Source: Thermoproteota archaeon
Lineage (GTDB): Archaea; Thermoproteota; EX4484-205; JAAOZO01
Length of the DNA: 49,482 nucleotides
Reading direction: 5' to 3'
Assembly (NCBI GenBank): GCA_041479945.1
Contig: JBGOYZ010000004.1
Coordinates: 1-49,482, forward strand
Position numbers and translations under genes: made by a program. Positions 9,642 to 11,473 of this stretch are shown piece after piece. Below the pieces are notes generated by a model, which saw only the letters and a program-made list of their open reading frames with translations, made no database searches and had not been told where the DNA came from. Numbering within the stretch: position 1 is the first letter of the stretch; each line of letters opens with the position of its first letter.

Positions 9642-11473
9642 CTACCCTTCTCGCTCGACCTCGCCCCAGTATCCCCAGTAAGGTTCAGTCTTTCTCTTTA
9701 TCGTTCCGACTTCCTCCAGCGCCTGCTGCAGATCCGGAGTGGCCAGGGAAGACAGAGTTGTCTTGATCTCATGAGCGTCAGACGAGGGGACATCAACGTA
9801 GAGGATCTGCCCTTCTCGAACGTTCCTGCCCACTGTGGCATCCGACACCGATATGGAGACCTCGTCGCCTGTCCTGGCCTCCTTCGACACCTCGTCCTTC
9901 AGCCGGATCGAATGGACATGCCCAACGGCTTCTCCCCCGGAGTTGAGCAACTTGGCCCCATCTCTCAGTATGCCCCTTTCCACTCGCACACCGAAGATCG
10001 CGGGTTTGCTCCTCCTGAACACGTAACCTGGTAGCACCAGCAACGTTGCGGGCGTCTGTATCTTGGCGAACCTCTCCGCATCTGTCGACTTCTCGTATTC
10101 TTCCTTCCAGTGCGTGTAGTCCTCCGTCAGACCGTAGATTATGTCCCCGGTGAATATCCTCACCCCTAGGTCCCTAGCTGATGACTCGACCTCCTGAGCT
10201 ACCTTTACGTTGAACGCCAACACCGCCCTGTTCGTAGCGCTTGAAGAGGCAGTGGAGGCCTCCACCACATCCTTCCTCGACACTGGTCCGATGTCGGCGG
10301 TCCTCACCTTGATGTTGACCTTCTGGAGCTCAAGGACCAGCGCCTCAAGGGAGCCCAAGGCGTCGGCTTTGACGATCAGGCCCTCGGTCTCCCTTCTGAA
10401 CATGAAGGTCGAGTACTCCTTGGACAGTTCATCGACAGCCTCCTTCTGCTCGGACTGGGAGTTGGCAACCATCAGGCTTGAGCCAGCGAGTGCCCCTTCG
10501 AGATCCGGTGCCCCCAACTTCACACCAGCCGAGGCGCGACAAATGCTGACCTGGGTGAACTTGTCCCTAGGATCGCGCATCTCATCCAGCGGCTTCGGGA
10601 CGAGAATCGCCCTCACCTTCGTGATGATCGGGCCAGAAGATCCGGACAGGACCACCGTGTCATTGACTGACAACTCGCCGTCGTACAGGATGACGTTGAG
10701 GGTGGGTCCCATCCCGACTTCTTTCTTGACCTCGAGAACTGTCCCCCTTCCTCTCTTGGACTTCACAGCCAGCGAATCGGACAGGTAGCTCTGGATCATC
10801 CCTGACATGACCGCTATCATCTCGGCCACGCCCTCGCCTGTCTTGGCGCTGAGCGGGATGACCGGTGCCTTTCCCTTGAACTCCCTGATGTTGTAGAACA
10901 AGTCCGCGTTGGACCCCAGCCTCGACAGCTCACCGACTATATCGTACAACTTGCCCTCCAATGTCCTGCGAACCTGCGGGTCCTGACTCTTCATTGACTT
11001 CAGGATGGACCGCGTCTTCTGTGGGACCCAGCCCTTCAGCAAGTCCACTTTGTTCGCGGCGATCACATATGGCGTGCTCCGCGTGTTGAGTATCTCAACT
11101 GATTCTATCGTCTGTGGCATCACTCCGGCAGTGACATCCACGACCAATATTGCGAAGTCGGCTATTGAGCCTCCCCTTTTCCTGAGGTTCATGAAAGCCT
11201 GGTGACCCGGCGTGTCTATGACCAGAAGGCCCGGTATCTTCAGCCTAGCGCCGACCTCTACTCCCTCGATACCCTTCACCACATCAAGGATCGTGTCTAG
11301 GGGTAGGTAGGAGGCACCCACGTGCTGGGTTATTCCTCCAGCTTCCCTCTTCGCGACCAGCGTCCCTCTGATCTTGTCTAGGAGGGAAGTCTTGCCGTGG
11401 TCCACTTAGCCCCCTCGCGGGTGTGGCCTAGAACCACGACTATCGGCTCCCTTAGGTACAGGGTTTGGCTCAC
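9642..11473 (-). CDS. infB: Translation initiation factor aIF5B/IF2, spliced: exon 1 11473-11423, exon 2 11405-9642 (604 aa predicted)
   Basis: Exon 1 reads [17 protein letters not shown] and exon 2 [15 protein letters not shown]...EAGGITQHVGA...DTPGH...NKVD; removing 17 nt restores GHVDHGKT. Confidence 0.93.
11406..11422 (-). other. 17-nt BHB intron in aIF5B mRNA (ACCCGCGAGGGGGCUAA)
   Basis: Central helix GGCC/GGCU, bulges AC|A and AA|G, inner CCC-GCGA-GGG hairpin, outer helix UCUA/UGGA. Confidence 0.88.

Follow-up and report, generated by a model that had tools for sequence, protein, structure and literature searches.

The translation GTPase aIF5B/IF2 is a universal, essential factor that acts in the joining of ribosomal subunits. 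In the genome of an uncultured Thermoproteota archaeon, the gene for this factor lies in the window analyzed here, a stretch of 49,482 nucleotides (nt) from contig JBGOYZ010000004.1, and it is interrupted by 17 nt at 11406-11422 on the minus strand. The insert sits inside the P-loop (the G1 motif) and splits ...VVVLGH from VDHGKT.... As the initial annotation of this DNA had proposed, the 17 nt are very probably an archaeal bulge-helix-bulge (BHB) intron that is spliced out of the aIF5B pre-mRNA. What this reading predicts was found in silico for the cut sites, the covariation of the helices, the single copy of the gene, the selection on it, the presence of the insert in DNA sequencing runs, the splicing machinery and the intron of a second gene in the window, Cbf5. 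From these sequences, we infer that the pre-mRNA is cleaved and ligated. The putative intron of the window is one case of a pair of aIF5B intron sites, in the G1 and G2 motifs, that is widespread in the phylum.

The interrupted gene and its predicted splice motif

Exon 1 (11423-11473, minus strand) starts with GTG at 11473 and runs for 17 codons to VVVLGH, which take in the first beta strand and, from the P-loop, the first Gly-His. In an alignment, it matches the N-terminal part of an intact homologue of the same class (L008), in which the P-loop region runs without a break. (Here and below, G, L, C, P and X numbers are analysis labels for genomes, loci, contigs, protein clusters and sequencing runs, and G000 is the window's own genome.) The insert follows at 11422-11406, between GGC CAC (11428-11423) and GTG GAC CAC GGC AAG ACT (from 11405). 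Exon 2 (9642-11405, minus strand) holds 587 codons and a stop from VDHGKT onward and carries the domains GTP_EFTU, GTP_EFTU_D2, IF-2 and GTP_EFTU_D4, with the GTP_EFTU match beginning only at profile position 12. When read unspliced, exon 1 leads into an open reading frame (ORF) of 31 amino acids (aa) at 11378-11473, stopped by the TAG at 11378-11380. The 587-aa ORF at 9642-11405 opens at the codons for (M/V)DHGKT and lacks half of the P-loop. The gene for aIF2-gamma (7944-9185, minus strand) encodes GHVDHGKT without interruption and serves as an internal negative control. The minus-strand sequence reads exactly as quoted in the initial annotation, which was also right on the coordinates of the insert, the consequences for the reading frame and the unbroken GHVDHGKT of aIF2-gamma.

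The insert is genuine DNA and the gene is alive; it is neither an artefact nor a dead gene. Exon 2 is under purifying selection, with a ratio of nonsynonymous to synonymous substitutions (dN/dS) of 0.054 at a dS of 0.75 when compared to G001, a genome of the same genus. The intron differs between these two genomes in two loop bases only, GCGA becoming GUAA. There is one aIF5B in G000, and the sole other match in the genome is aIF2-gamma. Contigs from three DNA runs, each of a different study, contain the insert, and no indel is listed for them: record 1 of X10 covers 9642-11440 with 0 differences, record 8 of X11 spans the entire 3.1 kb, and record 17 of X9 spans 11281-11541. The initial annotation had considered a dead gene unlikely and had named, among the findings that would speak against an intron, reads that lack the insert and a second, intact infB beside a degenerate copy here. 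The insert is in all three independent runs, and no second infB was found in G000.

The RNA of 11390-11445 (minus strand) was folded with RNAfold and compared with 200 shuffles. The predicted energy is -26.1 kcal/mol (z = -3.35), and 0 of the 200 shuffles were as stable. The whole splicing motif spans 11394-11440 on the minus strand. An outer exon-exon helix of 10 base pairs (bp; 11431-11440 with 11394-11403) is joined by a central 4-bp helix, GGCC/GGCU (11425-11428 with 11408-11411), a 3-nt 5' bulge, ACA (11422-11424), and an inner stem-loop (11412-11421) with a CCC/GGG stem and a GCGA cap. The 3' bulge (11405-11407) appears in a relaxed form of the fold. The intron would comprise 1 nt of the 5' bulge, the stem-loop CCC-GCGA-GGG, the GGCU strand and 2 nt of the 3' bulge. 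In the part of PMC6379350 that was available, the BHB is defined by two 3-nt bulges on opposite strands with a 4-bp helix between them, and an excerpt of PMC2738675 places the cut between the second and third bulge residues. Cutting in silico by that rule removes exactly 11406-11422 and rejoins GH|VDHGKT, which is the junction of VVVLGH to VDHGKT that the initial annotation had expected and which restores the P-loop exactly. The same canonical cuts rebuild the conserved motif in 32/32 of the interrupted genes first parsed (10 at site 1 and 22 at site 2, as defined below).

Two putative intron sites in relatives and across the phylum

The class was searched in full (26 genomes). At the position seen in the window, GH|VDHGKT (site 1), the gene is interrupted in 6/6 genomes of family f1, by inserts of 17, 17, 18, 18, 22 and 17 nt, and in none of the class's other three families. 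The alignment of infB across related genomes that had been suggested as a check agrees with an intron in both respects, with a site-1 insert present in the whole of f1 and absent elsewhere in the class, and with compensatory changes in the helices. Two of the 18-nt inserts are in frame, yet they contain stops. A second insert (site 2), which the window gene lacks, separates the codons for GG[I/M] from those for TQH in the G2/switch I region. It interrupts 8 of the 26 genomes, namely four of the six f1 genomes (not G000 or G001) and G006, G007, G009 and G010. In genus g6, neither insert is present in 14 of 15 assessable genomes, the exception being G010 with its site-2 insert; G013 (5' end missing) and G022 (a fragment) were not assessable. 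Orthologues without introns are found in most g6 genomes, at seven Asgard loci (both sites intact) and in the majority of the phylum sample.

A protein search of 251 genomes showed further split aIF5B N-termini. The phylum was then covered by 401 sampled genomes, which were scanned with exact patterns of both exon ends in International Union of Pure and Applied Chemistry (IUPAC) code, separated by a gap of 15-40 nt, and with the reversed pattern as a control. Matched regions were fetched, and the geometry was scored at fixed exon anchors. Since the patterns are exact, the counts are lower bounds. At site 2, 59 genomes match, compared to 7 in the reversed control, and 56 of the 59 have the geometry of a BHB; 55 of these combine 4/4 central pairs with an outer helix of at least 3 bp, and G187 has 3/4. 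The matches in G085, G255 and G396 were rejected as not BHB.

At site 1, 25 genomes match, compared to 4 in the control, and 16 of them are BHB: six in f1, two in f23 (with the cut shifted one base), two each in f26 and f30, three in f34 and one in f44. Central pairing is 4/4 in 15 of these 16, of which 13 are in strict register and two at a 1-nt shift, and 3/4 in G269. Six further matches (G166, G177, G249, G063, G042 and G222) were judged by eye to combine a chance upstream match with a contiguous motif, and the geometry was scored in the other 19. G220 and G232 (L117, L118) show the site-1 pattern but no motif, and these may be another gene or chance.

Either site is interrupted in 65 of the 401 genomes and in 15 of the 61 sampled families, and seven genomes carry both inserts in one gene. 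For example, 25 of the 32 genomes of family f11 have the site-2 intron, including two single-contig genomes (G032 and G039). At site 1, insert lengths of 17, 18, 22, 23, 27, 29, 30, 31 and 36 nt occur, and site 2 has lengths from 17 to 33 nt. These lengths include both multiples and non-multiples of 3, and many of the inserts contain in-frame stops. Scanning metagenomes gave another 17 contigs in which site 1 holds an insert, and in every one of them the central helix has 4/4 pairs. Within the clade that is at least 75% identical to G000 in amino acids, every insert is 17 nt long with the same CCC/GGG stem, while the loop takes nine different forms. The metagenome contigs also include the central-helix variants GGUC/GACU and, with a wobble, GGUC/GGCU.

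Covariation within the motif points to selection on its structure. Central pairing of 4/4 at the required register is seen in 55/59 cases at site 2, against a mean of 0.86 with shuffled introns, and in 13/19 at site 1, against 0.37. In 22 site-2 sequences, 96.7% of 269 cells are paired, compared to 28.5-46.1% when the partners are slid, and 49 cells show double changes, compared to 14.0 in shuffles. In the site-1 set of nine of the ten sequences (G135, misaligned by MAFFT, was excluded), the figures are 95.7% of 162 cells, 31.2-46.3% when slid, and 13 double changes compared to 4.2. At each site 0/500 shuffles reach the covariation score, although related genomes are not independent and such shuffle counts overstate the significance. 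In the six f1 genomes taken by themselves, 100% of 108 site-1 cells are paired (33-48% when slid), and in the site-2 set of the class, 93.3% of 104 cells are.

Most revealing is that the 5' strand of the central helix is coding sequence and varies with the residue that it encodes: G-I/M goes with GGGA, A-M with GCCA, and E-M with GAGA or GAAA. The intron strand tracks the exon strand, giving GGGA/UCCY, GCCA/UGGY, GAGA/UCUC and GAAA/UUUC. By this comparison, the predicted helices are maintained by compensatory change, including change of intron bases to match exon codons.

Splicing machinery and competing explanations

The endonuclease and the ligase that such an intron would need are both encoded in G000. 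Contigs C1 and C17 encode two EndA paralogues. They measure 184 and 218 aa, and both have an N-terminal and a catalytic domain (PF01974/PF02778). One RtcB is encoded on contig C5. EndA is probably a heteromer of the two paralogues; two-subunit (hetero-oligomeric) EndA is said, in work by Yoshinari from 2006, to be tied to intron-bearing lineages. Aragorn predicted introns in 14 of the 28 tRNAs of G000, many of them 10-19 nt long. Many of the tRNA introns in the Aragorn output are 8-19 nt, with several at non-canonical positions; a 1,143-nt "intron" and two calls of "tRNA-SeC" seem to be over-predictions.

Cbf5, which is responsible for the pseudouridylation of rRNA and tRNA, offers a positive control in the same window. 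Its gene is split into ORFs at 23813-24058 (with DKCLD) and 23044-23787 (with TruB_N from profile position 71, TruB_C_2 and PUA). A 16-nt BHB intron at 23805-23820 (minus strand) separates exons at 23821-24058 and 23044-23804, with the cut within the catalytic Asp codon. The motif consists of the outer helix GGGGA/UCCCC, the central helix CCCU/GGGG and the bulges AGU and AAA. The boundary of this insert is exactly that given for the crenarchaeal Cbf5 intron in the accessible text of PMC2738675, so the geometry used for aIF5B reproduces, in this organism, a known mRNA intron that has experimental support. The same portion of that paper lists the Cbf5 intron only for Desulfurococcales and Sulfolobales, with 0 for Thermoproteales, Cenarchaeum, Nitrosopumilus and Korarchaeum, and the case described here may extend the known distribution of that intron.

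In the proposed mechanism, the motif would arise from base pairing of the exon codons for V-V-V-L-G-H with those for V-D-H-G and of both with the intron. EndA, probably as the heteromer, would cut each 3-nt bulge between its second and third bases. RtcB would then join the exons into an mRNA with an intact GHVDHGKT, to be translated into a full-length aIF5B of about 604 residues. Unspliced RNA would be non-productive, yielding either a 31-residue peptide or a factor without strand beta-1 and the first glycine of the P-loop.

A number of observations weigh against BHB splicing of aIF5B. First, the motif is not as clean as the term "textbook" in the initial annotation implied. The central helix and the ACA bulge are canonical, and the GCGA-capped inner stem and the outer helix are in the fold, but the 3' bulge does not hold up: in the minimum-energy fold, the 3' side forms a 2x4 internal loop, UA/AAGU, and not a clean 3-nt bulge. 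The AAG bulge arises if the A:U pair beside the central helix forms, leaving one bulged U. In strict register, moreover, the outer helix at site 1 has only 3-4 bp. The motif of the window is best described as near-canonical or as somewhat relaxed. Second, not every insert fits. In G356 (L119), a 35-nt frame-breaking insert at site 1 has 3/4 central pairs and a 1-bp outer helix, which is no convincing BHB. In G089 (L056), the site-1 insert is 30 nt long, in frame and without a stop, although it keeps a full BHB with 4/4 central pairs and a 5-bp inner stem. Third, besides the relatedness of the genomes compared, genes without introns still form 7.2 of the 11 pairs of site 1 and 3.8 of the 6 pairs of site 2, which indicates that the conserved protein motif imposes part of the exon-exon pairing. 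This inherent complementarity of the codons around both sites may be a predisposition for BHB introns to settle or persist there.

The searches for a spliced product belong with these points as well. The only RNA run on the stretch, X20, gave two 151-nt contigs (12322-12472 and 12589-12739), which lie outside the junction, on the first gene of the translation cluster described below. Two protein searches turned up no near-identical protein whose N-terminus is continuous, a result that does not show such a product to be absent; the best match among short proteins was at most 65% identical, and all five clusters listed with at least 75% identity among near-length proteins were 587 aa. A variable-gap metagenome scan found no near-identical contig free of the insert. 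The 13 insert-free (gap-0) contigs that it returned are genomic; identity to G000 is 29-52% for 12 of them, and the remaining one (L128) has no protein match. They were rejected as spliced RNA or recent intron loss because they come from distant intron-less organisms.

The imperfect 3' bulge at site 1 and the G356 insert without a good BHB could also mean that the 17 nt leave the RNA by another route, through a different nuclease and ligase pair or by self-cleavage. This is very unlikely. The conserved features are the ones that define EndA substrates, the cuts needed are EndA cuts, and both EndA and RtcB are encoded in the genome. Also, group I and group II ribozymes need more than the 17-36 nt that these inserts provide.

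Another explanation does without splicing and has the ribosome hop or frameshift over the 17 nt, as in the bypassing of phage T4 gene 60. A stable hairpin does stand at the break, and the unspliced frame does run into stops after it, both of which also accompany known bypass and frameshift sites. The chance of such recoding is nevertheless very slim. Since the inserts vary from 17 to 36 nt, fall into all frame classes and often contain stops, no single shift or hop rule fits them. There are no matched take-off and landing codons (CAC precedes the insert and GTG follows it), and the geometry that is conserved is that of an endonuclease substrate whose cuts restore the motif.

It is just as improbable that translation starts on unspliced RNA at the GTG at 11405 and gives a shortened aIF5B of 587 residues, with the 31-codon ORF being irrelevant or a separate peptide. 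Exon 2 does begin with GTG, and public databases hold aIF5B in this form. In clusters P0121-P0129, the protein is called from just after the last intron, at 587 aa (as in the five listed clusters that are at least 75% identical) or, in relatives with two introns, at 520-548 aa. The relatives called at 520-548 aa are 59-61% identical, and one of them is labelled Brockarchaeota IF-2. Because gene callers start after the last intron, the deposited proteins lack the start of the P-loop or the entire G1 motif. A 587-residue product would lack strand beta-1 as well as the glycine that opens GxxxxGKT, its GTP_EFTU match begins late in the profile, and the shortened database forms have no match to PF01926, which intact homologues of 589-597 aa carry. 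Exon 1 is conserved and continues the alignment with homologues exactly. In relatives with a site-2 insert, the remaining ORF would lose the entire P-loop and half of switch I, and the structure around the break covaries.

There is hardly a case for a mistake in assembly or sequencing or for a pseudogene in decay: although G000 is a metagenome bin of 1.33 Mb in 111 contigs, 91% complete, so that a second intact copy could be unassembled, the insert stands without an indel in three DNA runs and in 17 metagenome contigs, the same site is interrupted in 6/6 genomes of the family, and exon 2 is open for 587 codons under strong constraint with no second aIF5B in the genome.

A genome-wide scan of G000 for BHB motifs returned 99,653 raw matches. 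Canonical cuts restored an ORF in 7,086 cases (12 of them strict), compared to 6,985-7,106 (11-15 strict) at eight decoy offsets. Since the canonical cuts do no better than the decoys, the scan has no statistical power and was dropped for discovery. Of its 23 strict candidates, only those in aIF5B and Cbf5 have protein-like junctions.

The aIF5B gene lies in a conserved archaeal translation cluster on the minus strand (9187-12741). Its members are L7Ae, two small ORFs at 12128-12334 and 11918-12127, which may be S28e and L24e, a likely nucleoside-diphosphate kinase at 11503-11949, aIF5B itself, a small ORF at 9187-9534, and aIF2-gamma.

Known systems and significance

The predicted aIF5B introns resemble the BHB intron of crenarchaeal Cbf5 (Watanabe 2002; Yoshinari 2006; Yokobori 2009, PMC2738675) in several ways. 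As far as the accessible part of PMC2738675 goes, pairing between exon and intron builds the motif in both, the cuts come after the second bulge base, sizes vary and some are in frame, a link to two-subunit EndA is probable, and the phylogenetic distribution is patchy. In each case, a catalytic or nucleotide-binding motif is disrupted by the intron, whose removal is therefore needed. The differences are that aIF5B is a universal translation GTPase, that it has separate sites in G1 and G2, some genes being interrupted at both, and that the lineages involved include Brockarchaeota-like and other uncultured groups. In addition, the splicing of Cbf5 was shown by complementary DNA (cDNA), whereas that of aIF5B is predicted from DNA.

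The BHB introns of pre-tRNAs share the geometry and the size range (11-175 nt for tRNA introns, according to an excerpt of PMC2738675), and the same enzymes are presumed to act on them. In aIF5B, by contrast, the motif is made of the codons of a protein gene. Its exon strands are constrained by the amino acid sequence, and therefore covariation runs between codons and intron.

A more distant likeness is to the IRE1-dependent splicing of HAC1 and XBP1 mRNA in eukaryotes (covered in part by the review PMC13149111). There too, a short mRNA intron is removed independently of the spliceosome by an endonuclease and a tRNA-type ligase (RtcB or Trl1), and the frame of the product depends on splicing. 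The nuclease is IRE1 rather than EndA, however, the motif is another one, and regulation is established for IRE1 and conjectured here. In Haloferax volcanii, EndA acts on mRNA besides tRNA and rRNA, which is similar, but the accessible text of PMC7714728 has one additional mRNA substrate being cleaved and reports no frame-restoring intron in a translation factor.

The introduction of that paper, in the part available, speaks of BHB introns "in one mRNA." In the available part of PMC6379350 and in the reference list of PMC12397907, Cbf5 is likewise the mRNA with such an intron. The available part of PMC2738675 gives splicing as confirmed for no gene but cbf5, and mentions that a rudivirus paper and a book chapter on Sulfolobus had predicted putative introns in other genes. 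No report of a BHB intron in aIF5B/IF2 was found in full-text searches of the main texts of openly accessible papers. Cbf5 is the only spliced archaeal mRNA named in the literature found, and aIF5B is a new host gene, with two sites and so far unannotated, for a known kind of intron.

One practical consequence concerns annotation. Proteins called at 587 or 520-548 aa instead of about 590-604 aa affect marker-gene sets, completeness estimates and phylogenies. The covariation between codons and intron also provides a template for scans for mRNA introns that are comparative rather than based on single genomes. Further, the aIF5B introns offer a testable system in which to ask whether archaeal mRNA introns have a regulatory role, how introns are gained and lost at the same codons, and what accounts for their position in the nucleotide-binding motifs that are conserved most, where the codons contribute to the helices.

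One could also consider a role for splicing by EndA and RtcB as a checkpoint. By acting on the aIF5B and Cbf5 mRNAs, it might tie the supply of these factors to the capacity for processing pre-tRNA and pre-rRNA, as an old archaeal counterpart of IRE1-HAC1/XBP1 that is shared by many lineages of the phylum and in which selection has kept the sites in G1 and G2. This idea is speculative and, on balance, doubtful. If the splicing itself is true, Cbf5 would no longer be the lone spliced archaeal mRNA, and a universal, essential GTPase would need tRNA-type splicing in about one-sixth of the sampled genomes of a major archaeal phylum.

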